Shown here: positions 24,405 to 55,438 of the stretch, in pieces
Layout of the letters: each line of letters opens with the position of its first letter
How positions within the stretch are numbered: the first letter of the stretch is position 1
IMG/VR virus record: IMGVR_UViG_3300025658_000218
Coordinates: 1-55,438 of that record
DNA length: 55,438 nt
Strand: one strand, 5' to 3'
From: a virus
Taxonomy: Duplodnaviria; Caudoviricetes
Position numbers and translations under genes: made by a program
Notes under the pieces: generated by a model
What the model was told of the DNA's origin: nothing
What the model saw: the letters and a program-made list of their open reading frames with translations, nothing else
Database searches by the model: none

Positions 24405-25544
24405 ATGCCATTACAAATTAGACGCGGTACTGACGCTGAAAGACTAGGATCTTTTACACCTGTTGAAGGTGAATTAATTTATACAACCGATACTAAAAAA
24501 CTATATGTAGGCGATGGAGCAACAGTAGGTGGTGTTGCAATCGATACAGTCGGTAGCGGCGGTGGCGGTGCATCAGTATTAGGTGATCTATCAGATGTAG
24601 TTATTGGGGCGTTAAATGCTGGCGATGTACTAAAATGGAACGGAGCACATTGGACAGGTGATACTGTCGGAGGTGTAGCTTCTCTAGATGATCTATCAGA
24701 TGTAATCATTGAGAATGCTATACCTGGTAGTATTTTACAGTATGACGGAGTACATTGGACTGTTGGAGCTGACACAACCGGCATGTCTGTGCTATCTGAC
24801 GATGATGATCCATCATTAGGTGGAAATCTTGATTTAAATTCATCTAGTATTACCGGCAATGGTAATATTAATATTACTGGTGATATTGTTTGCACTAACG
24901 AGATGACTGCTAATGTTGTAAACGGAAATTTTCACGGATCATTATTTGGTGATGTTTTTGCAGACGATAGTACAACTATACTAGTTGATGCAACTCTACA
25001 ACAATTTAATGGTAATCTTGTTGGTCCATTAGCAACAAACACAATCACCAGTAATAGTACTTTGGATATAGACGTATCTGGTTCACTTAATCTAAATGTA
25101 AGTGCTGATGTTTTTATAAAAAGAGAAGGTAATTCAGTACTATATTGTGTGAATAATCAGCCAACACAAGATCTATCCGCACCTGGTGTTTTTCACGGCA
25201 TTATTGGTGTTAAAACTATAGACGTAAACGGTGAAAACACAAGCGTAATACTAGGGGCCGGTAGTGACGGTTTCAGTATTAGTAAGACAGATGCAGCTTA
25301 TGCATTGCCTAACAGTAATAAATTGTTTATAGGCACTGATGGAAAATTTGGCTTTGGAACAATTACACCTACTGAAAAATTTGATTTTGACGGTAACACA
25401 AAAGTTAGTGGATTTGTACAATTTGGTTCATTAACAACAACAGAACGTAATGCTCTTACCGCAGCTAACGGAATGGTTATTTACAATTCAACAGATAACA
25501 AATTCCAAGGCTACGAAAACGGTGCGTGGGTAAACTTAGTTTAA
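24405..25544 (+). CDS. virion fibre/tail-associated structural protein
   Basis: N-terminal LQIRRGT...P.EGELIYTTDTKKLYVGDG (Mtd/hyaluronidase N-like), two L.DLSDV.I....G..L...G.HWT repeats, P.LGGNLDLN, C-terminal TTTERNAL...NGMVIYNST..KFQGY. Confidence 0.75.
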   Translation: MPLQIRRGTDAERLGSFTPVEGELIYTTDTKKLYVGDGATVGGVAIDTVGSGGGGASVLGDLSDVVIGALNAGDVLKWNGAHWTGDTVGGVASLDDLSDVIIENAIPGSILQYDGVHWTVGADTTGMSVLSDDDDPSLGGNLDLNSSSITGNGNINITGDIVCTNEMTANVVNGNFHGSLFGDVFADDSTTILVDATLQQFNGNLVGPLATNTITSNSTLDIDVSGSLNLNVSADVFIKREGNSVLYCVNNQPTQDLSAPGVFHGIIGVKTIDVNGENTSVILGAGSDGFSISKTDAAYALPNSNKLFIGTDGKFGFGTITPTEKFDFDGNTKVSGFVQFGSLTTTERNALTAANGMVIYNSTDNKFQGYENGAWVNLV

Positions 25545-26141
25545 TCTATTTACACAATAAACAAGATGTATACGGCTATCGATACTAGCGTTCACAGCAG
25601 TATGCCATTTCCTAGTATCTACAAAATAAGCATTTTCAACTTCAAACCAATAACATGTTTTCTCTAATACCATAAATGTTTTTTCATTTACTTTAATAGG
25701 TATGTGAATTCTAGGTGATTCATCATAATGATAAGTCATGCTAAATTTAGGCGGTAAACTTAATATACGTCCTCTAACACCACCGTACTGTTCTTTTACA
25801 AGTTCATTTACTTCTTCAATTATAGTGTCTTTAAATAAATTACAAGTTTCTGCAAACTGTTCTTGTGTCAAACGCTGATCTTGAGGTTTTTTTGGTGGTG
25901 GTTTGCCTGAATTTTGATCCCAATTACTCCAGTCGTATAATAAACTATTAGTGCTTTCTTTGAGCTGAAATTCAGAATCTGTATTATCTATTCTGCATTG
26001 TGTTGCAATTTGATATGACCAGGACATTGGATCTTCCATGCGCTGTTTACTGACAGTTGTTACTTCATGTATTAGTTTATTATAATCTATATCTAATTCT
26101 ATTTTTTTAAACATTTTATTTTCAACAACTTTCTTAAACAT
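25536..26141 (-). CDS. Fe(II)/2OG oxygenase, Asp/Asn beta-hydroxylase-like
   Basis: HYD...RIHIPI, DT...HTAVNAS...RIHLV. Confidence 0.75.
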   Translation of the reverse strand: MFKKVVENKMFKKIELDIDYNKLIHEVTTVSKQRMEDPMSWSYQIATQCRIDNTDSEFQLKESTNSLLYDWSNWDQNSGKPPPKKPQDQRLTQEQFAETCNLFKDTIIEEVNELVKEQYGGVRGRILSLPPKFSMTYHYDESPRIHIPIKVNEKTFMVLEKTCYWFEVENAYFVDTRKWHTAVNASIDSRIHLVYCVNRLN

Positions 26142-26171
26142 ACTTAGTGCAATAAAACTGTGAGAACAGTT

Positions 26172-27809
26172 TTAATTTTCTTTTTTATAAATATTTAGCA
26201 TTGCATGTATATCAGTTGCTATCTGATATTTCATTAAAAACTTTTTTACGTTGTTATCGTCCATAAAATATGTTTCTAAATCATACCATGCACCGGTTTC
26301 TTCTTCACAAATTCCATATATTCCTTCTTTAAGTATTTGAACCGTAACACGTTTAGCTTCTATACTTAAACTCGGTATTATTAAATTTTCAATGATACTA
26401 AAAGGAAAAGTCTTATCTTTTATTTTAAATGCTCCATACATTCTTGCCACTAATTTAGTAAATATGATGTCTTCAAAATCCATAAAATTATTTTTTATAA
26501 CAAATGTAGAATTTGTCCAACCTGCATCACCGTTTTTTTCTGACGTATGTATATCTTCTATGCTGTTAAAAGTTTGTATAACACTAGTAAACTTTTTAAA
26601 TTCTATTTGATATTTTCTTTGATATTCTTCATCGTATGCAGGTGAGTTAGGTAAAACTTCCCATAAATGTGCAAATACTAGCTGTATGCTTACTTTTTCA
26701 AATTCATAAAATTGATTTATTAAGTTTTGTCTTTTTTGATTAGGTAATCCTAATATAATTTCGCCTATAATAACTGCTTTTGGAAATTCTTCCACAAAAT
26801 CTAAAATATAAGATTTATGTTCGATCCAGGGTATTTCGGGTCGTTCGATTGCATTTAGGACATCTTCGTCTAAATCTTGAAAACTTAATTTCAGCCATTG
26901 ATTCGGGTTTGACTTTTTTTCATTTTCTCTAAAGATAATTCTAGACATTTCAAAAGCTCTATCTTTTTGTAACTTAGCAAGATTTAGTATATAAAAATTT
27001 CCTCTTTCTGCTGCATATTGAGTAATTTCTATATCTTCTTTAAAAATACCCCAATTAGCATCAGATGGTGTAATACTCATATTTAGAGAAAAAAGAAAGT
27101 CTATTTCTGATTTCCAATCAGATTTAGATCTAGTGACCTTATGATGTAATCCACTGCTCCAATCACAGAAGCTACACTTGTAGGGACATCCTCTTGCTCT
27201 TTCCCAATGGATAACTACTTCAAGTTCCTTTTTATAGAAATATTCCACATCTTCTTTTATATCTTTTTTACAACTAAGAATAGCACTAGTATTTTGATAA
27301 TTTAGATCTTTAAATACTCTGAATGGATATTTTTTTTCTTTAGTTACTATATTTACAGCTTGGTCATCTTTTAATTGTCGATTTTCAACAATGCTATCTA
27401 TTATTTCTGAAAATGCTTCTTCTCCGTCGCCGTACACTACATAATCTATAAAAGAATGTTCAATAAAAAAATTTTCGTCTTTATGCGCCCATAAGTTTGG
27501 GCCTCCTGCAATTATTTTAATATGCGGAAATTTACGTTTAACTATTTTTGCAACCATCATAGTCTTATCATGATTCCATGAGAAAAAACTTAAACATAAA
27601 ACATTTATATTTTCCTGTGCAACTTGATCGACTATTTCATTAACACTAATCCAAGGATCTAAAATGCGCGGCAACCAATTGACTTTTTTAAAATGATTTC
27701 CTTTGAATTCATAATAAGATTTCAAATGATAAAAATTTGGGTTAATTCGCATCATTTTATCTGATCCGTTTACAATTATCCCTATATTTACAAATTTTAA
27801 ATTTATCAT
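26172..27809 (-). CDS. cobalamin-binding radical SAM protein
   Basis: N-terminal B12 domain (LSFFSWN, IIAGGP, DYVVYGDGEEAF), RGCPYKCSFCDW, DANWG, EIILGLPNQ. Confidence 0.88.
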   Translation of the reverse strand: MINLKFVNIGIIVNGSDKMMRINPNFYHLKSYYEFKGNHFKKVNWLPRILDPWISVNEIVDQVAQENINVLCLSFFSWNHDKTMMVAKIVKRKFPHIKIIAGGPNLWAHKDENFFIEHSFIDYVVYGDGEEAFSEIIDSIVENRQLKDDQAVNIVTKEKKYPFRVFKDLNYQNTSAILSCKKDIKEDVEYFYKKELEVVIHWERARGCPYKCSFCDWSSGLHHKVTRSKSDWKSEIDFLFSLNMSITPSDANWGIFKEDIEITQYAAERGNFYILNLAKLQKDRAFEMSRIIFRENEKKSNPNQWLKLSFQDLDEDVLNAIERPEIPWIEHKSYILDFVEEFPKAVIIGEIILGLPNQKRQNLINQFYEFEKVSIQLVFAHLWEVLPNSPAYDEEYQRKYQIEFKKFTSVIQTFNSIEDIHTSEKNGDAGWTNSTFVIKNNFMDFEDIIFTKLVARMYGAFKIKDKTFPFSIIENLIIPSLSIEAKRVTVQILKEGIYGICEEETGAWYDLETYFMDDNNVKKFLMKYQIATDIHAMLNIYKKEN

Positions 27810-27814
27810 TAAAT

Positions 27815-28489
27815 TTATCTCATTTCTGATTTTATAATATCATAACTATCTATATTTAATGCTAAGAAAAATTGATAAACTTCATTTCCGATACATTCTG
27901 CATCATGTAAAGTGCTTGTTTCAATTAAATATAATCTTCCAGGTTCGGCAGTATGTGCTACTTCTATCATTTCTCCATCACGCTGTACACGCAATGATAC
28001 ACTCGCTGGATCATTAGTTCCCCATAGTCGTAAATTTACAGTAGGCACTAATACATCATAATGCGGAAGAAAATTAGCAGCTTTTTTCCAATATAATATA
28101 CAACTGCGACACATATAATCTTTTATAATGTTTAACTCATTAAAGCAACTATGATCTAATATTTCAGTAGTCACAGTAAAATCATTTTCTAATAAAGGAT
28201 TTTCTGGATTAGCTTTATTATATTGATCTAACGGACCTATACTTATATCATCTATATCATCGTATTTTCCATGTAAATTTACAAGAGGTAATCCTAACCT
28301 TATATCATTTAACTCAGGCCTATTATTTCCCCATGACTTAAAGTAATCTTTATACTGATGCATACACAAATTAAATTGATCTATATCAATTGTAAGTTTT
28401 GTAGGTGTCAAAAAATTTCTATGTATCGACCAATAGTCATCTGCTTCTAGTTTTCGGTACGAGTAATACTTTTCCATTGCTTTAGACAT
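27815..28489 (-). CDS. putative Fe(II)/2OG oxygenase (cupin fold)
   Basis: FLPHYD, LRLWG, GRLYLIETSTLHDA. Confidence 0.55.
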   Translation of the reverse strand: MSKAMEKYYSYRKLEADDYWSIHRNFLTPTKLTIDIDQFNLCMHQYKDYFKSWGNNRPELNDIRLGLPLVNLHGKYDDIDDISIGPLDQYNKANPENPLLENDFTVTTEILDHSCFNELNIIKDYMCRSCILYWKKAANFLPHYDVLVPTVNLRLWGTNDPASVSLRVQRDGEMIEVAHTAEPGRLYLIETSTLHDAECIGNEVYQFFLALNIDSYDIIKSEMR

Positions 28490-28946
28490 TATACAACTCC
28501 TTTACAATATTCCAAAATTCGTGTTCTTTGTCTTGTATATCTTCCCAATTATAAGAAAAGGGAATTTGTAAATTTAATCTAGTACATTCATTGTTGTAAA
28601 CTGCATGATAAGACTGCGTGTTAACAATAACTGTAGTATTTACATTGCCATTTTGTGTTACTATAGGTGAATAGTTATCAGTAAGAGGATGTATAATTAA
28701 TACATTTCTTCCTAAGTTTTTGCCATCTGTATGCATTTCTTGTTCTGCGTGTGGTAGCATTTTCATAATCCATGCACGATCAAAATTGCGGAACGTTACA
28801 GGCAAAAAATTTAACGGACTTAGTTTTCCACTTTTAGTGCTCCTATGTTGAATAAAATCATCTGACTCACTTAAAGACAATAAGCTTTCACGTTCTTCTG
28901 TAGTTACAAAGTCAGCAATTTTAAGATAAGAGCTATTAAATGTCAT
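28482..28946 (-). CDS. putative Fe(II)/2OG oxygenase (cupin fold)
   Basis: Start moved to MTFNSS at 28946; MHTD, NTQSYHAVYN...RLNLQ. Confidence 0.55.
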   Translation of the reverse strand: MTFNSSYLKIADFVTTEERESLLSLSESDDFIQHRSTKSGKLSPLNFLPVTFRNFDRAWIMKMLPHAEQEMHTDGKNLGRNVLIIHPLTDNYSPIVTQNGNVNTTVIVNTQSYHAVYNNECTRLNLQIPFSYNWEDIQDKEHEFWNIVKELYNV

Positions 28947-29913
28947 GGTACCAAAATGCTCCTCGCCACAATTCACGAGATTGATCATTACCGTTTTCGT
29001 CTTTTGGGAATACACTTCTTTTATGCAACCCTTGTGTATTGTCAAACAAAACAATATCTCCGTGTTCCCATTTAACTTCTGCACTTGTTTTTAAGAAATG
29101 ATCTTTTAAGAAGTTAAACAAATCTTGCCATTCATCTTCTGGAATATCATGAAATCCTACAACATTTGAAAACGGAAAATAAAGACCTTTAATACCAGTT
29201 AGTCTATGTCTATGTACAAGACGCTTGTAAATCATATTCCAACGAGCGCCCAGCTCTGAATACTTTTCAACTTTTTCCATCATTTCACGTTCGATTGTAC
29301 TTCCTGCAGAACGTGTTCTATCTTGTATTTTCCACAATTCAGCAATTTCTTCCATAGGAACTTCTGTCCAAACACGTTCGTTATCAAGTATACGAGGCTT
29401 AATACTACGCTTTACAAAGTGTGGGTTTTTAAGTTTGTGAAAGCTACGTGTATCTGCTGTTAAGATAAGTTCTGTATTTTCAATTTTATCTTTTACATCT
29501 TGTGGTAAACTGTTGTATGCAGCAACACCATTTGTAAAGTGCGTGTTACACGGATCTTTTGTAGGCTCTTCACAGTACAATACAACACAATCTTCTGGAT
29601 CTAATGTTAGTGTTCCGTTTTGGTGCCAATTAAGTTCGCCTCTACTAAACACACCTGGCTTGTCACCGTCATCTCCACACATCAGTTTATTAGTAACATA
29701 CATTACTTCGTGATGATCCTTATCCTCAAACCAAACATCTCTTTTTGGATTTACACCGAAGCACTGCATCATTCTGGCATAGTCTGCTTTTGTTAGTTCT
29801 TGTCCTTTAATAAGAACATTAACACGATGAGCTGCTAGTACTGCAATTTGTTTAACTTGTGTATCTGATAAACGTTTGATATCATCTACTTGTATTTCTG
29901 TAATTGTTTCCAT
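28936..29913 (-). CDS. TauD/TfdA-family dioxygenase with a non-canonical HQN motif
   Basis: LNWHQNG, VVLYC, T.FTN..AAY..LP, H..TG..GLYF, WEHGDIVLFDN..GLHKR, RELWR. Confidence 0.8.
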   Translation of the reverse strand: METITEIQVDDIKRLSDTQVKQIAVLAAHRVNVLIKGQELTKADYARMMQCFGVNPKRDVWFEDKDHHEVMYVTNKLMCGDDGDKPGVFSRGELNWHQNGTLTLDPEDCVVLYCEEPTKDPCNTHFTNGVAAYNSLPQDVKDKIENTELILTADTRSFHKLKNPHFVKRSIKPRILDNERVWTEVPMEEIAELWKIQDRTRSAGSTIEREMMEKVEKYSELGARWNMIYKRLVHRHRLTGIKGLYFPFSNVVGFHDIPEDEWQDLFNFLKDHFLKTSAEVKWEHGDIVLFDNTQGLHKRSVFPKDENGNDQSRELWRGAFWYHDI

Positions 29914-29914
29914 A

Positions 29915-30475
29915 TTAGACTTCCTCTAAGTATAAGTTTTTGTGCCAAAATATCCAATGCTCGCAATCTGCTCCATTGCATACTTTGTATTTTTTGTCAG
30001 GATCAAACTGCCATCCTTTTACACCACACAATACTTCAAGTCCGCAAAACATACGTTTAAACACTTTTAGGGCTTTATCATGCTGTGAAATAAAAGCACC
30101 TGAATATCCCATATCGTATGCTACTGCAATTTGTTGTTCAATCATTTGAATAGTATGATCTCTCCAAATGTATTTTAATGGCATTTCGGAGTTTCTTAAT
30201 CCTTTTGTTTTTATCGGCGAGTAGTAAAATCTACTAATTACTCTAACACTATCTTTGTATATAGGTCTGTGCATAATACAACTATAACCAAAGGGCTCGC
30301 CATTTCTTTCGGCAATGCTTACTGCTTGTGTTGTATCTAATGCTATTTTATCTTTACTATAGTTTGCTGGCATTCTATTGTTCGGATCAGTTTGCGCTTT
30401 TTCTAGTAAAAAATCTATTTTTTCCAAGACTTCAGGTCTGTCTCTAAAGTCTTGCCATGTATTAACTGTTATCAT
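29915..30475 (-). CDS. putative GNAT/acyltransferase-fold protein
   Basis: GEPFGYSCI...VRVISRFY, MIEQQIAVA...GY..AFIS, resembling acyl-transferase folds. Confidence 0.45.
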   Translation of the reverse strand: MITVNTWQDFRDRPEVLEKIDFLLEKAQTDPNNRMPANYSKDKIALDTTQAVSIAERNGEPFGYSCIMHRPIYKDSVRVISRFYYSPIKTKGLRNSEMPLKYIWRDHTIQMIEQQIAVAYDMGYSGAFISQHDKALKVFKRMFCGLEVLCGVKGWQFDPDKKYKVCNGADCEHWIFWHKNLYLEEV

Positions 30476-30482
30476 TTTTCAC

Positions 30483-31112
30483 CTAGTGTTTATGGTGGTC
30501 TGCATGTTTCCAAGCAGGTCCGTGTGTGAATATTAACTCTGGTGCATTGCGTGGTTCACCGTTTAAATGTCCTAAAACGTTTGTAATGCCAGCAATATGA
30601 AATGTTGTTGCTACAAACAAACTAATACCAAAACAAACAAACACAGGATTTATAATAACAAGTACTGCAATACTAGTAAGTTGAAAATATAACCAATACT
30701 TGTGCATAAATCTTTGAAATCTACTTTTTGCGATATCTCTAAACAGTTTAGGACTTATCTTTTGTTTTTTCCAACGTAAAACATACACGTTAAACTTTCC
30801 TATGTGTGTAGGCGAATGTGGATCTTTTTCTGTATCAGCATATTGATGATGCTGTCTATGACTAGCAACAAAACTTAATACACTACCAAGACCTGTAAAC
30901 ATAACTATAAATGTTAAAATATAATTAAGTACACTGTCTTGGTATGTTGAATGAGCAAAGTGGTAATGCATAATTTTACCGCCAACTATACCTCCCCATA
31001 CAATTGCAGTAAACACCAAAACAAATGCCCACAGAGGATCAAATCCATATGCAAAGATGCCTAGTGCAATTAGTAAATGATGTAATAGTATTAAGAATTG
31101 ATTACTGCTCAT
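30483..31112 (-). CDS. membrane fatty-acid desaturase family protein
   Basis: His boxes HYHFAH, HRQHH.YADTEKDPHSP, HADHH; transmembrane segments. Confidence 0.8.
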   Translation of the reverse strand: MSSNQFLILLHHLLIALGIFAYGFDPLWAFVLVFTAIVWGGIVGGKIMHYHFAHSTYQDSVLNYILTFIVMFTGLGSVLSFVASHRQHHQYADTEKDPHSPTHIGKFNVYVLRWKKQKISPKLFRDIAKSRFQRFMHKYWLYFQLTSIAVLVIINPVFVCFGISLFVATTFHIAGITNVLGHLNGEPRNAPELIFTHGPAWKHADHHKH

Positions 31113-31837
31113 GCTAATACCTTTTTGTTTAATGCAAATCTTAAATGACGTCTATCTATGTCAGGTGGAGTAAAGTCTCGCTTGTGTGCAACTTTATAGT
31201 TATTGTAAACTACCAAATCGTTAGGCTCCCAGTCATGCTTAAACACATACTTATCTTGGTAACTTAACTGTTTAAGTTCCTGTTCATGTTCAGTAAGTGT
31301 ATATGCTTCACTATAAAAATAATATTTGCCGTATTGATCTTCTTGTACAAGTTTGTGATTAGCTCGTGCTTTGGCACGATATGCTCTTTCCCAAACTTTA
31401 TTTCTAAATGTATGCGGGTAGTCGGCTTGTTTAAAATATTTTGCAACTTCATTGACTGCTACAACAGCTTCGCAAGCATCTTTAAGTTCTTGTGAGCTGT
31501 CTTTGTATACTTGTTGCATATCACAGAAATAAGTTGCACTAGAACCTTCGTCTGCGGCAATACAGTACAATCCTACAAATGGATGTACGTTTTCATTATA
31601 CGCACGATCCTGGTGCCAAAGCATTTCTGTTGTACTCCAGACATGATCTTCCTCTTTGTTTTTTGTTCCGATCGGAATAACTTTGCTCTTATATAGGTCT
31701 TGCGGGAGAAGCTCACCGAAAAATTCAATATCATCTTGTTTAGCATTTTTAATTACTAGGACACCTACTGCACCGTTGTATAAATCTTCTACATCATTAG
31801 TATCAAAGCTATTTTTTTCAACTACAAAATTATACAT
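31109..31837 (-). CDS. TauD/TfdA-family dioxygenase
   Basis: WHQD, GLYC, T.FCDM, H.WEPNDLVVYNN..VAHKR, R.LR. Confidence 0.85.
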   Translation of the reverse strand: MYNFVVEKNSFDTNDVEDLYNGAVGVLVIKNAKQDDIEFFGELLPQDLYKSKVIPIGTKNKEEDHVWSTTEMLWHQDRAYNENVHPFVGLYCIAADEGSSATYFCDMQQVYKDSSQELKDACEAVVAVNEVAKYFKQADYPHTFRNKVWERAYRAKARANHKLVQEDQYGKYYFYSEAYTLTEHEQELKQLSYQDKYVFKHDWEPNDLVVYNNYKVAHKRDFTPPDIDRRHLRFALNKKVLA

Positions 31838-33091: not shown

Positions 33092-33096
33092 AGTTG

Positions 33097-33125
33097 AGTA
33101 TAACACAATTATGTAAACCTGTCAA
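33097..33125 (-). promoter_or_regulatory. sigma70 promoter, probable leaderless transcript
   Basis: Minus strand TTGACA-17 bp-TATACT, then 5 nt to the ATG at 33091. Confidence 0.65.
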
Positions 33126-46281: not shown

Positions 46282-46503
46282 CTACTCCGATACTAACTTA
46301 ACATTTTTACCCGGACCTACTTTACTCGGAAGTCCGCCGTATTCCTTTACATACCATTCAATAACTGCTTTGTACCAGTTATGACTATTATGGTGTGCTT
46401 GTTTATTAAACTGCCAAATATTGTTATTTGTAGCTTGTATTGTAGTTAGCGCACGAGCACTTTCTGTCTGTAGTTGTCTGACTGTAAGATTACTTATATC
46501 CAA
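46282..46503 (-). CDS. hypothetical protein
   Basis: 73 aa, overlaps the upstream gene end. Confidence 0.6.
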   Translation of the reverse strand: MDISNLTVRQLQTESARALTTIQATNNNIWQFNKQAHHNSHNWYKAVIEWYVKEYGGLPSKVGPGKNVKLVSE

Positions 46504-48131: not shown

Positions 48132-48137
48132 TTGTTT

Positions 48138-48166
48138 ATTATACTACCTTTTATTGTTTTTGTCTA
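48138..48166 (-). promoter_or_regulatory. sigma70 promoter, probable leaderless transcript
   Basis: Minus strand TAGACA-17 bp-TATAAT, then 6 nt to the ATG at 48131; no SD. Confidence 0.62.
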
Positions 48167-48174
48167 GTATTTTA

Positions 48175-49707
48175 TTAATAATTATTTTCTAATTCTTCAA
48201 ACATTTTCATACCAAGGTACCAGAGAAATATACCAAACGGCGACTTGTGTAAAGGGCTCATATTCCAAAATATAATAGGTATTAATTGTTGGACTTTCTT
48301 ATAATCCCATCCTTTTGAGTATACAAATTCTTTTAACAGTTGTTGATAAGTATCAATCTCATCTATATTTGGAATTTTAATAGTAACTTCTGTTCCAGTT
48401 ATTTCAAAATCAAAATTATAGTTTTTTATACTTGCATAATTGACTATAAATCCTCCGGCCATTTTTGCTAAGTCATAATATATATCTCCGTAGTCAACTG
48501 TGTCAGCAAAATCATGCCGCCAGTCAATTAATATAAAGTCTCCAGAGTTGTTTATAATAATATTGTCGAATTGTAAATCGCCGTGTATAAACCCGGGTAT
48601 CGTATTAGTTGAAAGATATTGCCAGTCAATGTTATCTAAGTATTCTAGATGTGATTTTATCTGTATGCCATTTACATGGGTTATATTCTGTAATACAGGA
48701 TGCTTATCTAGGAACTTTTCTATCCTACGTATTGTCTTGTCTTTATAAAATAGCATAGCTGATTGCGACAAATCATTGTTTACAGTTGTCCAAACATTGT
48801 TGTCGAGCCAATTTAATAATTTGTTAAATACTACTGGATTATTAAACGAGTATAATGTTTGTCCCTGGACAAAATCATAAGCCATGAACTGCCCTTTAAC
48901 TAAACAATTTGAAGGGAATACTTTAGGATTTAATTCAGGCTTGCAATTTTTCTTTTTTGAAACAGTGCTATCGTGCCACCACTTTACTACACGATTATTA
49001 CAAATATAAGTAACTTCGTCTTTTTTACTAAAATCAAACTTTTGACTTTTTGCTACTGCTGTTTGATATAATGTAGGACTGCCAAAATCCAACCAACTGT
49101 TTAATGTTTTACACATGGTGCCAGGTTGTATTAGTTGTATAAATTCATTATCGTTTAGTTCGGTCAATTTAGCGAAAAAGTTTTCCCATTCACTAATATA
49201 CATTAGGCCTGTCCAAGCAGTCCAGTCGCTAGGTGCATCTTTTTTAAATGTAATTTCTTGTATTATATTACTATTTGTTTTAAACATTGTGTACAAATGA
49301 CTATCTTTTTGCGGAATATCTTTTACATAATAGCAATCATGTGTAGGAGTATTAGTAACCACAGGTTCGTTAAAAAAAGTATCACAAGTAACATACCAAA
49401 AAGAACTATTGATATAATCTTTGCATTGTAATAAAGAATAGCCTGTGCCAGCTTTATTACTTTCCCAGTCAACATCTACAAATGTAATATTTCTATCGCT
49501 ATATGCAACAGCACAAAAGTCTTTAATTTGATCTGCTAAGTATCCTACTGGCATAACAAAATGTGTGTCTATAGGAAATTGATCTATAATATGTGCAATA
49601 ACAGGCTTTTCTTTATACGGCAATAATCCTTTATTAAGATGCTTAGTATAATCGCCCATCCGAGTACCTAATCCAGCAGTTGGTAAAATTACTGTATGTT
49701 TATTCAT
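48175..49707 (-). CDS. nucleotidyltransferase fused to a choline/aminoglycoside-type kinase
   Basis: N-terminal ILPTAGLGTRM.....NKGLL; C-terminal HGDLQFDNII, LIDWR, GD.YYDLAK. Confidence 0.82.
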   Translation of the reverse strand: MNKHTVILPTAGLGTRMGDYTKHLNKGLLPYKEKPVIAHIIDQFPIDTHFVMPVGYLADQIKDFCAVAYSDRNITFVDVDWESNKAGTGYSLLQCKDYINSSFWYVTCDTFFNEPVVTNTPTHDCYYVKDIPQKDSHLYTMFKTNSNIIQEITFKKDAPSDWTAWTGLMYISEWENFFAKLTELNDNEFIQLIQPGTMCKTLNSWLDFGSPTLYQTAVAKSQKFDFSKKDEVTYICNNRVVKWWHDSTVSKKKNCKPELNPKVFPSNCLVKGQFMAYDFVQGQTLYSFNNPVVFNKLLNWLDNNVWTTVNNDLSQSAMLFYKDKTIRRIEKFLDKHPVLQNITHVNGIQIKSHLEYLDNIDWQYLSTNTIPGFIHGDLQFDNIIINNSGDFILIDWRHDFADTVDYGDIYYDLAKMAGGFIVNYASIKNYNFDFEITGTEVTIKIPNIDEIDTYQQLLKEFVYSKGWDYKKVQQLIPIIFWNMSPLHKSPFGIFLWYLGMKMFEELENNY

Positions 49708-50518
49708 TGTTCCTCTTATTCTGTTTAATTTTTTTTAATGCAATTTTTGCTGCTGCTCTATGTCCTTTGGCACTAGTATGCATACTGGGTATATCATCAG
49801 GGTACTTAATTGATAATACTCCCCAATCTATCTCCATATGATTATTATTATCAATTAATACAAATTTTTTAAACTCATCTATGGGCTCGGTACCAATAAG
49901 GTGTGGTATGTTTGCATTTTTTAAAGCAATATGACACATTGCTATTGCTCCTAAACTATGCATCTTGTTTATACGATGATCATGTATATGCTGAGCATAG
50001 TCATATAATATCTTTGTTCTACTCTTAGGCTCGTTATAAAATCTTTCATAATATCCAGTAGGAGTTTCATTTTTTGTGCCCACTACATTATCAAAATAAT
50101 CAATTACGCCAAATAAGTTTTCTGTAAAGATCTTTCCATTATAACGACTGCTATCATGCATTATATGTGTTTCGCCATCAGCCTGTGGCATATAACTTCC
50201 TGGATAATACGGAGGATATTGATGATAATTTATATCAAAGTTAGTTGGAAATTTATTATTTGTAACGGCATCGTGTGCAACCCATTCTACCCTATCATAA
50301 CTAGTATTAGTAACTAATATCATCTCAATATCATTAATATGCTCTATTGCATATAATACTTGTAAAAATATACTATAATTTGTACTGGACCCTTTGGCAA
50401 TATTTATAAGCTCTAATCCTAATTCATCGGCTACTATACTTCCGTACGGTTCGTTTTTAAGATCTCGACAACCAATTCCTTTTGCAAAACTGTCGCCACA
50501 TATTACAAGTTTTTTCAT
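49700..50518 (-). CDS. SGNH/GDSL-like protein
   Basis: CGDSFAKG, NIAKGSSTN, MHTS.KGH. Confidence 0.6.
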   Translation of the reverse strand: MKKLVICGDSFAKGIGCRDLKNEPYGSIVADELGLELINIAKGSSTNYSIFLQVLYAIEHINDIEMILVTNTSYDRVEWVAHDAVTNNKFPTNFDINYHQYPPYYPGSYMPQADGETHIMHDSSRYNGKIFTENLFGVIDYFDNVVGTKNETPTGYYERFYNEPKSRTKILYDYAQHIHDHRINKMHSLGAIAMCHIALKNANIPHLIGTEPIDEFKKFVLIDNNNHMEIDWGVLSIKYPDDIPSMHTSAKGHRAAAKIALKKIKQNKRNNE

Positions 50519-51375
50519 AATAAATTATTTTCCTTTATGTATCTTACTAATTCAGTTGCCCACGCTTCGTGCCCTGACGGGCTGGGATGCCAACCTACTA
50601 AAGGATCATCTACATTTGCTTCAATAAAACTTTTAAATGTACTATTAGGTTGGTCCTTTTTATAAAATCTCACCGGATCAACTGTATCCCATAACGTCCT
50701 AAAAACCATTTTTTTGGACTTTCTTTTACCGTTATCAGAATATGAGTAGCCACCTACGTTGTAATCAATACTCTTCAGCTCTTCTATTATGTCGAGATCT
50801 TGCCATCCATCAGGTCCTTGATGTGGCGTTTGATAAAACGCATTGTAAGATAACCATTTAATATTATGAGCATTACAAAAATTTTGAAATTGTGTTATTG
50901 CTGAGACGTGTCGTGGTATATACTCTTCCGGGTTCCACATGTGCTGAACATACATCTTCCAAAGTTTTTTCTGCTTCTTATCACCAAAGTTCTGAACCTG
51001 TGGCCATAATCTAAACTTGTTAGAAAAGTTTCCATTTTTCCACCAAAAACTATTTCTTTCAGGACTTGTCCAACCAATAATTACAAATATATCATCAGTT
51101 GATTTATTACAACTTAGATATTCTGTACTAATATATGACATTGTTCTTTCTATTATAGTTCTGTTGTCATCAGCAGGCCAACTTAGATTTACATAGTCGC
51201 AATCTAGTTGTTTTGCCATATAGTGAGGATAAATTTTAGGAATTCTGTAATAATCGTTTGCTTCCTTAAAATCGTATACTCCTGGATGGGTGCCTCGAGG
51301 GTGCTGTGCTGCTAAAACAGGGTCTGCAATTTCACATCCGAACGTCCAACTATCTCCGTCAAAGATTAATTTCAT
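50515..51375 (-). CDS. SGNH/GDSL-like protein
   Basis: DGDSWTFG, VNLS....N..I, IIGWTSPER, HPSPSGH..WA; start moved to 51375. Confidence 0.65.
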   Translation of the reverse strand: MKLIFDGDSWTFGCEIADPVLAAQHPRGTHPGVYDFKEANDYYRIPKIYPHYMAKQLDCDYVNLSWPADDNRTIIERTMSYISTEYLSCNKSTDDIFVIIGWTSPERNSFWWKNGNFSNKFRLWPQVQNFGDKKQKKLWKMYVQHMWNPEEYIPRHVSAITQFQNFCNAHNIKWLSYNAFYQTPHQGPDGWQDLDIIEELKSIDYNVGGYSYSDNGKRKSKKMVFRTLWDTVDPVRFYKKDQPNSTFKSFIEANVDDPLVGWHPSPSGHEAWATELVRYIKENNLL

Positions 51376-52181
51376 TATATGTACCACTCCTGCCAAAGTT
51401 TTTTTATTTTATCGTAGTCTTCGACAGAGTCTAGTCCCTTACCTTGCATAGTACTTCGGACTATTGCGTAATCAATTTTATAACTATCGGGATGAATATT
51501 GTGTGATATTGCATATCGATAAAGAAGCGTGCCTGGGCCTAAATGTAGTTCTGTATTAATATTAAGTTGTTTGACTGTTATTTCTGGGTTTTTGTTGTCT
51601 CTATGTTTTAAGGCATAATACTTATATAACCCTGACAGAACATCCATTGTTTTGCTGTTACCAAAAAACATAACATCGTCGAAACACTGCGTATTAAATT
51701 CAGCTGAAAATCTAGCTATTTCAGTCGCAGTATAGCATGAGCCATCATCAACATGATGATAGAACGGAAAACGTTTAGTAGGATTATATACAGTGTCAGG
51801 ACGGGCCTTTATTACAATATCATATACAAAATTGTTTTCCAATTCGTACTGTCTCTTTAGCATTATGCTATATTCAAAACTATAAAATAAAGGGTCCCAA
51901 GATGATTTCCACTCGTTACAATGATATTCTGACATATGATACGAAACTGGCTTATATGTGTCTACTAATTCGCTTATATCGTTATGCTTCTTGTCTATGT
52001 AGGTGTGTATATCTGTTTTTGGAAATCTCCATGTGTTAGTATCCCAAGTATGTATAAAATAATCTACTGATATGCCGGAATCTTTTGCCGGTGAAAAGTA
52101 AGTTAAAATATTTTTTGAAGCAAGTTTCCAATCTCGTATTTGTCCACTAAAACAAACTGCAACTCTTATTTTCTCTTTCAT
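51375..52181 (-). CDS. putative glycosyltransferase-like protein
   Basis: AVCFSGQIR, FIHTWD, FYS...S..LKR..E, YDIVIKARPD, DD..F.G.S..MD. Confidence 0.55.
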   Translation of the reverse strand: MKEKIRVAVCFSGQIRDWKLASKNILTYFSPAKDSGISVDYFIHTWDTNTWRFPKTDIHTYIDKKHNDISELVDTYKPVSYHMSEYHCNEWKSSWDPLFYSFEYSIMLKRQYELENNFVYDIVIKARPDTVYNPTKRFPFYHHVDDGSCYTATEIARFSAEFNTQCFDDVMFFGNSKTMDVLSGLYKYYALKHRDNKNPEITVKQLNINTELHLGPGTLLYRYAISHNIHPDSYKIDYAIVRSTMQGKGLDSVEDYDKIKKLWQEWYI

Positions 52182-53050
52182 GATATTTCATAACCTCCGA
52201 GCGGTCCGAAACCAAAATCTTGTTTTAATTTAACATATTCTGAGTCTCGAACTATTTTAGGATCATCAGATATTGTATCTATTGATATGTTAAACATTTT
52301 TGCATAAAAATATAATAGATGTTCTGGAGCTGCATCTGATGTCTGAGATATAGCTCTAGATCCTAATGTCGGCAACCACTGATAGAAATTTGACATCTTA
52401 TCAAATGTTGGACTATCAGCATACCAAAATATATCACCTAGTCTCCTTTTAAACCACATTACATCATCTATTCCAGTATGACAAGAATAAACTGTATTAA
52501 ATTTAGGGTTTAACAGATTTTCTATAGACAGAGCTGATAAACTTTTTTTGAAATAGAGATCATTTCTCATACGAACACACACATCGTAATTAAAATTATG
52601 TTTTATTTCATGCATTCTTTTTAAATGTGCAGAATACATGACTGAATAAAATTGTGGTGACATCCACGCATTACTGCATTCACCGTAAAGACACTTTGTG
52701 TCAAGTGCTTGCTGATCAAGTGTCTGCTGCGTTGAGTTCTTAGATGCTGTTATATTACTAATTTTGTAATCTACCGGATTAAGTTGTTTAATATAATTAC
52801 CTATTTCGGCGTTAGATAATACAGATGCGTTATCGATAATATTATTACCATATTTCTCAGTAGCAATACTTTGCTGCAAGGTATTGTGATCCCAAATATG
52901 ACAAAATACGTCAATTTCAGTTATACCATATGTTTTTTCTAGATTTTTAAATAACTTTTTCCAATTCATTATGCATCTGTTCCATGTACGAAGTTGTCCA
53001 CTAAAACAAAATGCAACTTTTATATTTTTTTTATTTAGTTTATCACTCAT
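52178..53050 (-). CDS. putative glycosyltransferase-like protein (paralog of 51375-52181)
   Basis: AFCFSGQLR, FCHIWD, QFYS...S..LKR..E, YDVCVRMRND, D.FWY..S..FD. Confidence 0.55.
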   Translation of the reverse strand: MSDKLNKKNIKVAFCFSGQLRTWNRCIMNWKKLFKNLEKTYGITEIDVFCHIWDHNTLQQSIATEKYGNNIIDNASVLSNAEIGNYIKQLNPVDYKISNITASKNSTQQTLDQQALDTKCLYGECSNAWMSPQFYSVMYSAHLKRMHEIKHNFNYDVCVRMRNDLYFKKSLSALSIENLLNPKFNTVYSCHTGIDDVMWFKRRLGDIFWYADSPTFDKMSNFYQWLPTLGSRAISQTSDAAPEHLLYFYAKMFNISIDTISDDPKIVRDSEYVKLKQDFGFGPLGGYEIS

Positions 53051-54450
53051 AGTTTAGACCACTTATAATATTCTTCTTCCATTTCAGGGAACGTTTTAAG
53101 AAAATTAGTTCCGCGCCTTCTGTCATGCTCATTAACAAACTTAATAAAGTTTAATCGATTTTCTATAACATGTGGTTTAGTTTCATGTGTTTCATCTATA
53201 TATGTAATGATCTCATATAGTCTTTTAAATTTATCTGCTTCCCACTGATAAAATCTATTATTTGCGGTACCATACCATGTTGGATTTTCAACATTTTCAT
53301 GTACATACGTTACTTGGTCGTATACATACTTTTTAAATTTTTCTGGCATAATGAAAATAGCTTGGTGTGGAGGATGTCTCAAAAATGGAACATCGAGAAT
53401 CATAGGATGAAGTCTTACATCGTGTCCGCCGTATTCTTGCTTTATATCAAGAATATCTTTGCTAAACTCTTTAAAACTAAACAAACTTAAAAAGTTATAG
53501 GTACTCATACATGTAAAAGAACAATTTGGTACTTCTCTTAACACCCGATGAATATTGTCTAACCATTGATTATAATTTAAACCATGACGTATATATTCAG
53601 CCTGAGCTCCATGTGCTTCGGCACTTGTAAATATTTTAAACTTCTTTACTTTACCTTCGTTACAGATAATTTTAATTTTTTCAATAAAATTATTAAATAC
53701 TGCATCTGGTATACACATATTACTGTTAATTGACACTTCTAGATTAGGCTTAGGATTTGCTATTAGATCATCTAAAACTTTAAAAGTATCTTTAGCAAGT
53801 AATGGCTCGCCGCCGGTAATTCTAAAGTGATGTAAGTCCTTTGAAACATCAGGCCACCATTTCCAAAATGCTTCGACATAAGGATTATGTTCTCTATTTG
53901 GAATAGGCATCGAATTTGTTTCACGCAAATAATCTAAATTATTAAATTTAGTTGAAGTTGGATATGGGCCATGTTGTTGTATTTCTTCCATCCACTTACT
54001 ACTAACCTGTGGAGAACAATATGAGCATTTAAAATTACAAACACTACTAAAGCTGACTTCAAGATAGCTCGGGTTAACATTATCGTCCCACGGCTTGGAT
54101 ACAATATCTTCTAGGTATGACTGAGACCAAGGCTCAGCTGATTTATATGTTCTGTCGCTTAAACTATCGCTACCGGAATCTTCCACACGCCAGCAATAAT
54201 CACATTCGTTGGGGCGGTCGCCTTCTAGCATCTTTTTACGCTGTTGTTTTTTAAAATTAGTATTATGTAATGCGCTAGGGTTATCTTTTAATTCTTCAAT
54301 AGGTATCTTGTGTGGCGCTGGATGGTGACAACTATGTGTATGTCCATTATGAAGATGTATTGTTACTTGCTTCCATTTTGCTATACAAAATGAACAACTT
54401 ACTTTATCTAATTTTTCTTTTTTAAAAGTATGTATATCTGTCATTAACAT
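53047..54450 (-). CDS. radical SAM protein with N-terminal twitch-like domain
   Basis: FCIAKW...G..HSCHH...CDYC..VE, CNFKCSYC, TGGEPL, NSN. Confidence 0.9.
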   Translation of the reverse strand: MLMTDIHTFKKEKLDKVSCSFCIAKWKQVTIHLHNGHTHSCHHPAPHKIPIEELKDNPSALHNTNFKKQQRKKMLEGDRPNECDYCWRVEDSGSDSLSDRTYKSAEPWSQSYLEDIVSKPWDDNVNPSYLEVSFSSVCNFKCSYCSPQVSSKWMEEIQQHGPYPTSTKFNNLDYLRETNSMPIPNREHNPYVEAFWKWWPDVSKDLHHFRITGGEPLLAKDTFKVLDDLIANPKPNLEVSINSNMCIPDAVFNNFIEKIKIICNEGKVKKFKIFTSAEAHGAQAEYIRHGLNYNQWLDNIHRVLREVPNCSFTCMSTYNFLSLFSFKEFSKDILDIKQEYGGHDVRLHPMILDVPFLRHPPHQAIFIMPEKFKKYVYDQVTYVHENVENPTWYGTANNRFYQWEADKFKRLYEIITYIDETHETKPHVIENRLNFIKFVNEHDRRRGTNFLKTFPEMEEEYYKWSKL

Positions 54451-55373
54451 TCCTGGTTAATAAATTGTTGATTAGCAGTACGAGCAGGATTCTGGTACAC
54501 TGTCTTAAAGAACTTACTTTGTTGTGCGTTTAACGGACTTTCTGCAATCGGTATTTCAAGTTCTTTAATAAGCTTAATACCATATTCTTCAATAGAGTCT
54601 TCTAGTCCGTCCATTGATACTTTAGGTTCAATTTCTTTCCAAAGATTATTAAGATATTCAAAGTCACGTACATTGATAAAATTCCAGTCTGTACACATAG
54701 TTTTGTACAGTCCTTCTCTAGCACCGTAAATAGCCCATTTTCCGTTTTCTACATCTGCACCTACCATTAACCAAATATATAATCGATGCAAATTTTTCCA
54801 GTGACTCTTAAGTAACTGTTCTTTTGTTACCCCAATGCCTTGATCTAATGTCATCTTTACACCTTCTCTAAATCCAGCACGCCATGCTTGATGCGGAGTA
54901 GCGTTATTCATTATTTCGCTGTAGGTTCCGTTCATTTGTATATATTTAATATCCCAACAAAAATCAACCTGTGCATGGGCGTTATTTGGATCTGCATTTT
55001 CATGTGTACGCATGTTAAGAACATAGTTTTTTGGCCAGCATTTAATTCCACCGTTGCCGTATGTTAATCCATTAATTGTATTTTTAGCAGTCCAACTAAT
55101 TACACTAGTGGACAAGTTAGCATGTTCTTCAAAATCTATTTCTTGATTAAGAAATCGTTCATCTATAATATTATCACCATCGATTGTAATAAACCGATCA
55201 GTTTCGCTTAGTTCTGCACATGCCTTGTGTGCCGCATCTGATCCTTCAACTCCATGTACACGTTTAGCCCATGGCACTTTATTACACAAATCTGCATAGT
55301 TTTTTTCAGCATTTGGTTCATCATATGACAAATATATAATATCATAATCTGTTACTCTAAACTTTTTGTTCAT
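54444..55373 (-). CDS. GT-A-like glycosyltransferase
   Basis: YDIIYLSYDEPNAE, HGVEGSDAAH, IDGD, YGNGGIK, AWRAGFREGVKM. Confidence 0.65.
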   Translation of the reverse strand: MNKKFRVTDYDIIYLSYDEPNAEKNYADLCNKVPWAKRVHGVEGSDAAHKACAELSETDRFITIDGDNIIDERFLNQEIDFEEHANLSTSVISWTAKNTINGLTYGNGGIKCWPKNYVLNMRTHENADPNNAHAQVDFCWDIKYIQMNGTYSEIMNNATPHQAWRAGFREGVKMTLDQGIGVTKEQLLKSHWKNLHRLYIWLMVGADVENGKWAIYGAREGLYKTMCTDWNFINVRDFEYLNNLWKEIEPKVSMDGLEDSIEEYGIKLIKELEIPIAESPLNAQQSKFFKTVYQNPARTANQQFINQEC

Positions 55374-55438
55374 TTAATTACCCTATAGACATAAGTGTCA
55401 AAGAACTTATTTGTATATATACTTACTTGCTTATCGGT
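55370..55438 (-). CDS. 3' end of an upstream gene cut by the window edge
   Basis: Open frame TDKQVSIYTNKFFDTYVYRVIK-stop overlapping the ATG at 55373 (ATGA). Confidence 0.45.
   Translation of the reverse strand, partial: TDKQVSIYTNKFFDTYVYRVIK

Follow-up and report, generated by a model that had tools for sequence, protein, structure and literature searches.

Large hypervariable islands beside the tail fibre genes are known from marine myophages. In pelagimyophages such an island, the host recognition cluster (HRC), holds fibres, glycosyltransferases and genes related to lipopolysaccharide (LPS), and radical SAM cassettes are the sole difference between two close genomes (PMC7029224). Here we analyze a viral record of 55,438 bases (IMG/VR IMGVR_UViG_3300025658_000218, Caudoviricetes), in what follows the window, by which we mean this whole stretch. 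From 25536 onwards it is occupied by a block of minus-strand genes, numbered g01 to g33 from a fibre-like gene towards the contig end, among which radical S-adenosylmethionine (rSAM, or radical SAM) enzymes predominate. Like the HRC of pelagimyophages and cyanomyophages (PMC7029224), this is a large hypervariable island located by a tail fibre-like gene, and its content is turned over in the way described for the HRC, with loci carrying a 95% identical g20 (one of the rSAM genes) differing in their flanking genes. Unlike the phages treated there, the one studied here belongs to a jumbo lineage of about 380 kb with a DNA polymerase nearest to those of Atu_ph07, Phosso and Rak2-like phages. Its island also differs from the HRC of that source in being dominated by rSAM genes (43% of the open reading frames, ORFs) and in having a defined backbone found also in Bdellovibrionota. 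The pelagimyophage HRC is placed there between VrlC and gp14 of the T4-like structural module; in our case one side of the island abuts a fibre-like gene with an Mtd_N domain, and the polymerase speaks for jumbo phages rather than pelagimyophages. A T4-like marine environmental viral genome with 12 radical SAM genes has been reported in a context of Fe-S metabolism (PMC5332604). That paper, in its available part, counts the rSAM genes and describes neither an island nor a backbone or function. With these two sources the general phenomenon is already in print. In open-access papers and bioRxiv we have not found described the dominance of one uncharacterized rSAM family, a defined backbone with fusions and a 73-amino acid (aa) protein, the scale of the cassette pool or a module common to Bdellovibrionota.

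Other known systems share particular traits with this island. Glycosyltransferases and methyltransferases near structural genes are found in Che8-type mycobacteriophage clusters and in chlorovirus PBCV-1 (A64R), where the enzymes glycosylate virions; the fold matches of g26 to these are distant (TM about 0.3–0.4), and such systems are not known to us to contain radical SAM enzymes or to turn over cassettes to a comparable extent. Flagellin islands of the Campylobacter type are hypervariable, encode a CMP-nonulosonate synthetase, a PP-loop amidotransferase-like protein and paralogous families, and decorate a conserved surface protein. Radical SAM enzymes are not, to our knowledge, a feature of them, and unlike them the present island yielded no nonulosonate synthase or maf-type genes in the Pfam searches. 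The phage clusters for 7-deazaguanine modification of DNA combine the preQ0 genes FolE, QueD, QueE and QueC with DpdA/TGT. FolE, QueE-like, QueD and QueC-like genes are also encoded in the lineage examined here, with the difference that the QueC-like genes are variable paralogues within the island. Finally, most rSAM proteins of the island share with the NCBIfam family NF033640 a twitch/SPASM-like domain before the rSAM core, and differ in forming arrays of paralogues in a phage.

Backbone and cassettes of the island

The island comprises 33 minus-strand ORFs of 186–545 aa spanning 25536–55373, with neighbours that overlap or are at most 43 nucleotides (nt) apart. The sole sizeable gap (210 nt) is filled by a 73-aa ORF at 46282–46503 (sORF73), giving 34 genes in all. 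A preliminary description of this DNA had reported about 31 contiguous minus-strand genes, correct for the single-strand packing and too low in number, and its remark that there was no obvious precursor peptide overlooked sORF73, which is conserved. It had also placed the island head-to-head with the fibre gene; the arrangement is instead convergent, the fibre-like gene (24405–25544, plus strand) and g01 meeting tail to tail with their 3' ends overlapping by 9 nt. The sign of the GC skew switches at the island boundary, at about 25.5 kb. On the other side the contig end cuts the island, and in a related record (G001) more genes of the same strand precede the g33 orthologue. The fibre-like gene with its Mtd_N domain abuts the island directly in the window, and in G001 five more large genes lie between the two.

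The window belongs to a real and uncultured lineage of jumbo phages, widespread in the sea, whose genome has about 380 kb. CheckV gives the record as about 15% complete, which implies a genome near 370 kb, and G001, with 381,886 bases and 100% complete by CheckV, is collinear with the window over the replication arm, the MoxR/VWA pair, the fibre-like gene and the island. The family B DNA polymerase (1523–4189) is 42–50% identical to those of the jumbo phages Phosso and Atu_ph07, of Vibrio phage 2.275.O and of Rak2-like coliphages. At 36300–46279 the sequence is nearly intact in 17 marine sequencing runs among those listed, from at least 11 studies (2011–2024), which contain at least half of the sampled words.

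To define what is conserved we scanned IMG/VR with g20, which retrieved 173 relatives, and analyzed the best 80 loci (21 kb each) by tblastn with all island proteins and by simple ORF calls that were clustered and regrouped at fixed identity; the counts are approximate. A backbone recurs in them with the order GT-A protein, rSAM, GT-A protein, methyltransferase-fold protein, 73-aa protein and three rSAMs. Best conserved is g20, present in all the loci. An orthologue group of g23 at 60% identity or more was found in 73/80 loci and that of g13 in 38/80, the latter number being limited by locus length; g26 was detected in 66 loci (median identity 66%) and g25 in 70 (54%), and g33 and g32 recur upstream. 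sORF73 is present in 65 loci at 63–94% identity, always directly after g25. A single reading frame of 700–1200 aa joins g33, g26, a middle segment and g25 in many loci, and these fusions tie the proteins functionally to one process.

Between the anchors the genes are replaced wholesale among close relatives, so that the island is hypervariable around a conserved backbone. Loci in which g20 is 95% identical to that of the window carry unrelated neighbours, and orthologues at 60% identity or more were found in none of the 80 loci for g15, g17 and g32, in one for g18 and in seven for g16. The cassettes consist mostly of additional rSAM genes. Over the 80 loci, backbone included, 586 of the 1357 ORFs of at least 100 aa (43%) are rSAMs, and a 21 kb locus contains between 5 and 12 of them (median 8). 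Grouping at 60% identity divides these into 149 groups, of which 67 have a single member, and the CX3CX2C motif is kept in 581 of 594 rSAM family members. The comparison of core and variable genes across related phages, which the preliminary description had proposed, has separated a conserved backbone from swapped cassettes. The lowest G+C of the window was seen in the variable cassettes (26001–38000), with 28–30% in three 2 kb bins, a value that fits genes circulating in a shared pool.

All nine rSAM proteins announced for the island were confirmed. The CX3CX2C motif is present in 9/9 and the PF04055 cut-off is reached by eight, while g02 is assigned through its B12-binding domain and its match to a family of B12-dependent rSAMs. 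Six of the nine (g15, g16, g17, g18, g20 and g32) are members of NF033640, with whole-protein scores of 175–422 bits where the curated cut-off is 170; g13 and g23, at 43 and 36 bits, fall outside the family. A Cys-rich twitch/SPASM-like domain precedes the rSAM core, detected as Pfam SPASM at residues 4–97 in five proteins, and C12, C30, C93 and C96 are invariant upstream of C149/C153/C156. For NF033640, which is a sequence model, no substrate has been described. The solved proteins nearest to it in sequence include, on the one hand, SkfB and 5wgg, which modify peptides, and on the other viperin, MoaA and cytosylglucuronate decarboxylase, which act on nucleotides and nucleoside sugars. Phage records contain arrays of up to nine paralogues above the cut-off each, and the whole records G004 and G001 gave 18 and 13 matches.

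Genes of the window

The genes of the island and the fibre-like gene beside it are listed below, with their position, strand and the evidence for each.

24405–25544, plus: fibre-like gene; Mtd_N E 1.3e-12, C-terminal 66 aa 41% identical to a cyanophage 'tail protein', G001 orthologue 35%.
25536–26141, minus: g01, Fe(II)/2-oxoglutarate (Fe/2OG) oxygenase of the Asp/Arg beta-hydroxylase family, last of the array; PF05118 E 3.7e-6, relatives of 31–37% in 11/80 loci.
26172–27809, minus: g02, B12-binding radical SAM protein (a class including C-methyltransferases), variable cassette; PF02310 E 4.7e-11, NF033712 E 4.4e-25 (below cut-off), CPYKCSFC at residue 208.
27815–28489 and 28482–29084, minus: g03 and g04, variable cassettes; no Pfam or PHROG match, no hhalign link to island oxygenases, no relative in the 80 loci.
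28936–29913, minus: g05, TauD/TfdA-family Fe/2OG dioxygenase; PF02668 E 4.2e-28, solved relatives including taurine dioxygenases and ScoE.
29915–30475, minus: g06; no Pfam or PHROG match.
30483–31112, minus: g07, membrane protein of the FA_desaturase family, paralogue of g09 (32% identical); PF00487 E 4.1e-8, 5 hydrophobic segments.
31109–31837, minus: g08, TauD-family Fe/2OG dioxygenase; PF02668 E 4.8e-22.
31830–32516, minus: g09, membrane protein of the FA_desaturase family; PF00487 E 5.8e-9, 3 hydrophobic segments.
32483–33106, minus: g10, class I SAM methyltransferase; Methyltransf_23 E 2.1e-8, Methyltransf_11 E 6.4e-7.
33109–33879, minus: g11; no family match, hhalign to g10 and g25 negative, methyltransferase-like glycine motif by eye only.
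33873–34484, minus: g12, PP-loop ATPase, QueC/asparagine synthase-like, semi-conserved; PF06508 E 5.3e-11, PF01171, 44% identical in G001.
34484–35596, minus: g13, radical SAM protein without N-terminal twitch, conserved anchor; PF04055 E 1.8e-14, G001 81%, Bdellovibrionales contigs 62–66%.
35593–36237, minus: g14, SGNH/GDSL-like; linked by hhalign (97%, 181 columns) to a cluster with a Lipase_GDSL match in its representative.
36230–40670, minus: g15, g16, g17 and g18, four tandem rSAM paralogues with N-terminal twitch, variable cassettes; NF033640 213, 397, 175 and 309 bits, mutual identity 24–34%.
40694–41572, minus: g19, probable Fe/2OG-type oxygenase, semi-conserved, adjoining g20; H122-x-D124...H266 kept in a 26-member cluster, hhalign 39% to the TauD-type g05, no Pfam match.
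41556–42971, minus: g20, rSAM with N-terminal twitch, best-conserved anchor; NF033640 422 bits, 82–95% in 80/80 loci, Bdellovibrionales 59–61%.
42979–43905, minus: g21, travelling with g22; no family match, together with g22 in 3/80 loci.
43905–44633, minus: g22, cytidylyltransferase resembling CMP-nonulosonic (sialic-type) acid synthetases, variable cassette; PF02348 E 1.1e-16, the 5 best solved relatives all CMP-N-acetylneuraminate synthetases.
44647–45735, minus: g23, radical SAM protein, conserved anchor; PF04055 E 1.2e-7, Bdellovibrionales 44–48%.
45701–46279, minus: g24, nitroreductase family, variable cassette; PF00881 E 2.7e-5.
46282–46503, minus: sORF73, conserved 73-aa three-helix protein; overlaps the g25 stop by 14 nt.
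46490–47494, minus: g25, variable helical N-terminus and conserved C-terminal domain of class I methyltransferase fold, anchor; residues 144–334 41–45% identical to Bdellovibrionales proteins.
47451–48131, minus: g26, glycosyltransferase-like protein of predicted GT-A fold with invariant D57-x-D59, anchor; model pLDDT 93, Foldseek GT-A matches.
48175–49707, minus: g27, fusion of a nucleotidyltransferase of sugar-1-phosphate or phosphocholine type and an APH-type kinase, variable cassette; PF01636 E 1e-6, PF12804 E 6.5e-4, weak solved relatives UDP-glucose pyrophosphorylases and LicC.
49700–51396, minus: g28 and g29, SGNH-like, variable cassettes; g29 DUF6071 E 1.5e-7, hhalign to the GDSL cluster 92% for g29 and 76% for g28.
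51375–53050, minus: g30 and g31, paralogue pair (27% mutual identity); only sub-threshold DUF7796, no hhalign link to g26.
53047–54450, minus: g32, rSAM with N-terminal twitch, semi-conserved, between two GT-A genes; NF033640 351 bits, G001 40%, RsoM2USA 42% with the same gene order.
54444–55373, minus: g33, anchor and the island's first gene within the window, a GT-A-like paralogue of g26 (35%) extended at its C-terminus; G001 71%, RsoM2USA 48%.

Several enzyme classes had been named for this block beforehand and most, not all, of their members withstood profile searches. Both desaturases are indeed members of the FA_desaturase family (g07, g09), and the CMP-sugar synthetase (CTP_transf_3), the nitroreductase-family protein, the nucleotidyltransferase-kinase (NTP_transf_3 with APH) and the QueC-like PP-loop protein were all matched by Pfam. 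Where up to six Fe/2OG enzymes had been supposed, Pfam recovers g01, g05 and g08, and g19 can be added by its HxD...H motif and the hhalign score, leaving g03 and g04 unsupported. Only g10 is a methyltransferase by Pfam among the three suggested; g25 has the Atlas neighbours mentioned below as a lead, and nothing supports g11. The three SGNH proteins (g14, g28, g29) are borne out to different degrees by the DUF6071 and hhalign matches listed above, and of four glycosyltransferase-like proteins two keep that assignment by fold (g26 and g33) and two, g30 and g31, have no support for it from these tools. No non-ribosomal peptide synthetase (NRPS), polyketide synthase (PKS) or transporter appeared in any Pfam output, as had been said. 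About one third of the proteins encoded by the island could be placed in no family. For ten lacking a Pfam family PHROGs returned nothing, and Pfam at E ≤ 5 gave only chance-level matches for ten such proteins. The PP-loop protein g12 reaches 38 bits against the QueC equivalog cut-off of 150 and has a weak likeness to amidotransferases; PP-loop domains of its type are fused to an rSAM in a cluster of six members from six loci.

The model of g26 (pLDDT 93) matched GT-A transferases in Foldseek with E 5e-5 and a TM score of 0.43, which are distant matches. Nearly all its 37 PDB matches at E ≤ 0.001 are GT-A transferases, and D57 and D59 are invariant in 37 sequences. By this model g26 adopts a GT-A fold and its DxD motif is in place, which makes it a putative transferase. 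Close matches in the viral library are long uncharacterized proteins of uncultured phages; the Che8 glycosyltransferase (viral library, E 7e-4) and PBCV-1 A64R (PDB, E 1.6e-3) are distant ones, and by fold g26 also resembles peptide S-glycosyltransferases and polypeptide GalNAc-transferases. For the C-terminal domain of g25, Atlas neighbours named as class I SAM methyltransferases offer a lead to its function. In its variable N-terminal part (47199–47338, minus strand) a helical segment is doubled by a tandem duplication of 81 nt with 95% identity.

The small protein sORF73 starts with TTG in 55 of the 65 loci that have it. Its 28 invariant positions are spread over all 73 residues with no variable core, and AlphaFold2 predicts a compact three-helix bundle (pLDDT 92). 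Foldseek, searched at E ≤ 0.001, matched nothing to this fold (its best E was 2), and the best VIA-align Z was 4.1, in a range common for small helical bundles.

Scans of the window for promoters (113 against 93.5 ± 10.8 in shuffled sequences) and terminators (65 against 64.4 ± 7.0) gave no excess and are not used as evidence. The T4 late-promoter motif TATAAATA had 3 matches against 11 expected. The best sigma-70-like matches (12/12 and 11/12) lie at 35602–35630 and 48138–48166 on the minus strand, directly upstream of the anchors g13 and g26, in scans that overall do not exceed the shuffles. A diversity-generating retroelement for the Mtd-like gene was looked for and discarded, the window containing no template/variable repeat pair. 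Joints in X1, an independent sequencing run (e.g., 48190 to 51552), were considered as cassette-deletion variants and are not relied on, with only 21 letters on the shorter side.

Outside the island, the replication arm contains at 12554–16812 (plus strand) a series of metabolic genes, which encode a phosphoribosyltransferase, a heme oxygenase, GTP cyclohydrolase I, a UPF0093 membrane protein, a QueE-like radical SAM protein, which is the tenth rSAM of the window, and a DUF805 protein. At 20273–22782 (plus) the gene of a MoxR-like AAA ATPase precedes that of a DUF2201 metallopeptidase/VWA protein, and each protein is about 70–74% identical in G001. Directly upstream of the fibre-like gene, at 23186–23455 (plus), a GCA-rich repeat with a period of 9 nt encodes a low-complexity protein rich in Ala, Glu and Gln.

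Relatives in cultured phages and Bdellovibrionota

Isolated phages contain little of this system. A tblastn search with g20 weakly matched three records only, the two Vibrio phages K566 and K567 and Ralstonia phage RsoM2USA, none of them a Pelagibacter phage, and a blastn search with 36230–43905 against the phage collection gave no match. RsoM2USA, a cultured soil jumbo phage of 344 kb, has the block g33-g32-g26-g25 in the same order (genes 350–347, L082 5600–9400) with identities of 48%, 42%, 43% and 30% respectively, and all four genes are annotated as hypothetical.

We also scanned the GTDB species representatives with a three-sequence alignment as query and kept 78 cellular loci. In 58 of them the title (counted by hand) was Bdellovibrionota. 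Four others (L103, L104, L147 and L156) come from metagenome-assembled genomes (MAGs) titled Crocinitomicaceae, Gammaproteobacteria, Rickettsiales and Neisseriaceae and have g20 at 57–95% identity; their gene order is that of the phage, sORF73 included, and for this reason we take them as phage contigs binned into MAGs. Their titles could be host hints or mere binning noise. In the remaining 74 cellular loci sORF73 was not detected, its only matches in the scan being these four phage-like contigs.

The Bdellovibrionales loci are located on contigs of up to 804 kb where g26, g25, g20, g23 and g13 occur together with 40–66% identity, and beside this backbone are more rSAM paralogues, B12-rSAMs and a carbamoyltransferase. 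Three Bdellovibrionales genomes had 19, 12 and 16 matches to NF033640, and 0/14 control genomes had any. The family was over its cut-off in 45/201 genomes of the phylum of G006, and in the class of G010 (Poseidonocella) in 1/201, which is G010 itself. In one Bdellovibrionales genome of 1.9 Mb (G008) we observed two arrays of N-twitch rSAMs, of about 7 and 8 genes (G008:C1:792852–803016 and 1068646–1092743), a very high share for its genome size.

Proposed chemistry and possible targets of the product

The preliminary description saw in this block an assembly line tailoring a glycan or lipid, a view that agrees, as to the glycan, with g22, g27, the GT-A and SGNH proteins and the cassettes of relatives, and that had missed the hypervariability, the dominant rSAM family, the small protein and the link to Bdellovibrionota. 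The cassettes of the relatives encode UDP-glucose/GDP-mannose dehydrogenase, NodU-type carbamoyltransferase, an AMP-binding enzyme, B12-rSAMs and the fusion of rSAM and PP-loop protein, and the CMP-nonulosonate synthetase expected of a nonulosonic acid pathway is represented by g22. No initiating transferase, flippase, polymerase or ABC exporter was found by Pfam among the 33 island proteins, the visible part of a cut island, or 20 cluster representatives from relatives. The only proteins with several hydrophobic segments are the two desaturases; g26, g33, g30 and g31 have none. A GtrABC-type set for O-antigen seroconversion (membrane-anchored GT2, flippase and membrane glucosyltransferase) was not found in the island. 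Having tools to activate and decorate sugars and no export genes, the island can be read as a cytoplasmic system for tailoring a sugar or glycoconjugate, with most of its diversity contributed by the rSAMs. We consider it quite possible, if somewhat short of probable, that the block is the visible part of a hypervariable, rSAM-dominated tailoring island, located at a constant position by the fibre-like genes, that makes a strain-specific glycoconjugate, with the virion surface or a fibre as the favoured acceptor.

In such a system the backbone (g33, g26, g25, the 73-aa protein, g32, g23, g20 and g13) would make a basic product, and the cassettes swapped between close relatives, mostly rSAM paralogues and also Fe/2OG, SGNH, methyltransferase and sugar-activating enzymes, would alter it. 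Nucleotide-activated sugars, here perhaps including a CMP-nonulosonic-type acid, would be assembled in the cytoplasm of the infected cell by the GT-A enzymes. The rSAMs could then rework the sugars at unactivated C-H positions, for example by epimerization, deoxygenation, C-methylation or oxidation, and the resulting strain-specific glycoconjugate may have a role in host recognition or evasion. As no export machinery is encoded, the acceptor would most likely be made inside the cell, which favours the virion surface or a fibre protein, and the island adjoins fibre-like genes both in the window and in G001. The distant likeness by fold of g26 to glycosyltransferases of virions and of proteins points the same way. 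The sugar substrate, the types of reaction, the acceptor and the role in recognition or evasion are all proposals that we infer from gene content, and of the two levels the claim about chemistry is more likely than the claim about the target. Upstream of g33 in G001 (233506–236714; L094 13506–16714) two large adjacent proteins have in common with proteins of Atu_ph07 and Phosso a domain of about 135 aa at the N-terminus and differ in the rest, a pattern typical of fibre or baseplate-attached proteins.

A number of observations weigh against this reading. No backbone enzyme has a characterized relative, and the dominant family has no known substrate and solved relatives that include peptide- and nucleotide-acting enzymes. 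The clearest sugar genes are variable, g22 being found in 3/80 loci and g27 in 0/80, so they say more about this variant than about the backbone. In the window Pfam detected neither a NeuB/PseI-type nonulosonate synthase nor an aminotransferase nor a sugar dehydratase; these may lie elsewhere in the genome or in the host. The GT-A assignment is a distant structural match (TM 0.43), of a fold that also includes nucleotidyltransferases. A glycosylated virion is a prediction, and contigs from RNA libraries (three runs, two samples, two studies), which touch 23, 22 and 29 of 30 bins over 34400–54399 at low depth, are no proof of transcription, as such libraries can hold DNA. They are compatible with expression of the island, and the bins without such cover are no evidence of silence. 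Besides, the presence of the backbone in Bdellovibrionota chromosomes means that a virion acceptor is not required.

The product of the same sugar chemistry might instead end up on the envelope of the host, in the LPS O-chain, the capsule or lipid A, altering the surface during infection and blocking other phages. Two membrane proteins of the desaturase family point to a lipid or membrane-bound substrate, and g01 belongs to the Asp/Arg hydroxylase family, which includes lipid A and ornithine-lipid hydroxylases. In PMC7029224 the pelagimyophage island beside the tail fibres, with its glycosyltransferases, LPS genes and rSAM cassettes, is read as modifying the host O-chain. Against this, neither a flippase, a polymerase or an ABC exporter nor an initiating phosphoglycosyltransferase or a membrane-anchored glycosyltransferase is encoded in the window, so that this route would depend wholly on host export, and the desaturases and g01 are variable or weakly conserved parts. 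The lipid substrate that had been put forward earlier depends on those two variable desaturases, and we regard an envelope target as rather unlikely.

Quite unlikely too, in our opinion, is a maturation system like those for peptides that are made on ribosomes and then modified after translation (RiPPs), in which the rSAM array would modify amino-acid side chains of a phage protein or peptide, sORF73 or the fibre protein, with glycosylation, hydroxylation and methylation as further decorations. It is mainly for maturing peptides that SPASM/twitch rSAMs are known, SkfB and 5wgg are the top solved relatives of the family profile, many sub-threshold NCBIfam matches are to peptide maturases, and the likeness of g26 to peptide S-glycosyltransferases and polypeptide GalNAc-transferases goes in the same direction, as does the conservation of a small protein within the backbone. 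The mixture of B12-rSAM, Fe/2OG hydroxylases and methyltransferases recalls proteusin clusters. However, sORF73 is conserved from end to end as a compact helical bundle with no split into leader and variable core (other small ORFs were not surveyed systematically), and it was not detected in the 74 cellular loci, including Bdellovibrionales loci that have the rest of the backbone. The Pfam output, which leaves about a third of the island proteins without a family, contains no leader protease, RRE-type/PqqD-like domain, YcaO or lanthipeptide enzyme, and the sugar-nucleotide cassettes are better explained by a glycan.

We give a still lower probability, one that makes it very unlikely, to hypermodification of a nucleotide or of the phage DNA, by elaboration of a 7-deazaguanine-type base or as a nucleotide analogue against host defences. 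GTP cyclohydrolase I (14454–15140) and the QueE-like radical SAM protein (15574–16467) in the replication arm, a QueD/PTPS gene in G001 (QueD in 2/5 relatives), the QueC-like PP-loop proteins of the island and the matches of the family profile to viperin and MoaA are all in its favour, and FolE, the QueE-like protein and QueD together could make 7-carboxy-7-deazaguanine, with no obvious route into DNA. The modified base suggested in the preliminary description finds no TGT/DpdA-family gene (PF01702) in any of the five related records searched, complete G001 included, versus 14/14 control genomes, a search that divergent DpdA forms could escape. Neither is there a QueC match in a frame of QueC length: the only one to pass the Pfam cut-off, by a small margin, lies in G004, where a 309-aa frame covers 72/210 profile positions, and the remaining QueC matches are short, partial and located in island PP-loop genes. 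We know of no role of GT-A, SGNH, NeuA-like or carbamoyltransferase genes in base modification.

That the island is an assembly chimera, cellular DNA misjoined to a phage arm or a decaying remnant has next to no probability: its G+C (28–37%, against 35–41% in the replication arm) and the location of its closest cellular relatives in bacterial chromosomes would allow it, but the order arm-fibre-island is the same in G001, replication-arm genes adjoin the island in four more contigs (L006, L070, L072 and L078), a DNA contig of X1 equals 35084–41827 without one difference, the 17 runs contain the sampled words as said above, and the genes are intact and tightly packed with their catalytic motifs kept, rSAM motifs included.

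Returning to the glycoconjugate as product, we also entertain a wider version of it, which we hold to be unlikely: a chemical counterpart of tail-fibre mosaicism, where a fixed core, consisting of two GT-A enzymes, a methyltransferase-fold protein, three to four rSAMs and, in phages, a 73-aa protein of their own, makes a scaffold and is re-programmed by rSAM cassettes of more than 100 types, each strain displays a different radical-tailored glycoconjugate, and the system is shared with predatory Bdellovibrionota as a means to diversify surface chemistry. If true, this would be a diversification system common to two kinds of predators of Gram-negative cells and a reservoir of radical SAM carbohydrate chemistry. 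If it were ordinary glycan tailoring, the backbone and the 73-aa protein would still be concrete constructs to express and assay. Should the reading hold, an abundant ocean phage lineage would represent a pool of well over 100 distinct intact rSAMs from a family without a known substrate, and with conserved and variable steps separable it would offer a tractable entry point to the enzymology of NF033640. The backbone in Bdellovibrionota is a second, possibly culturable system, and its existence hints at a link of this chemistry with the attack on other bacteria, beyond the biology of phages alone. All this bears on the role of the large non-fibre part of the 'host recognition' islands of marine phages.

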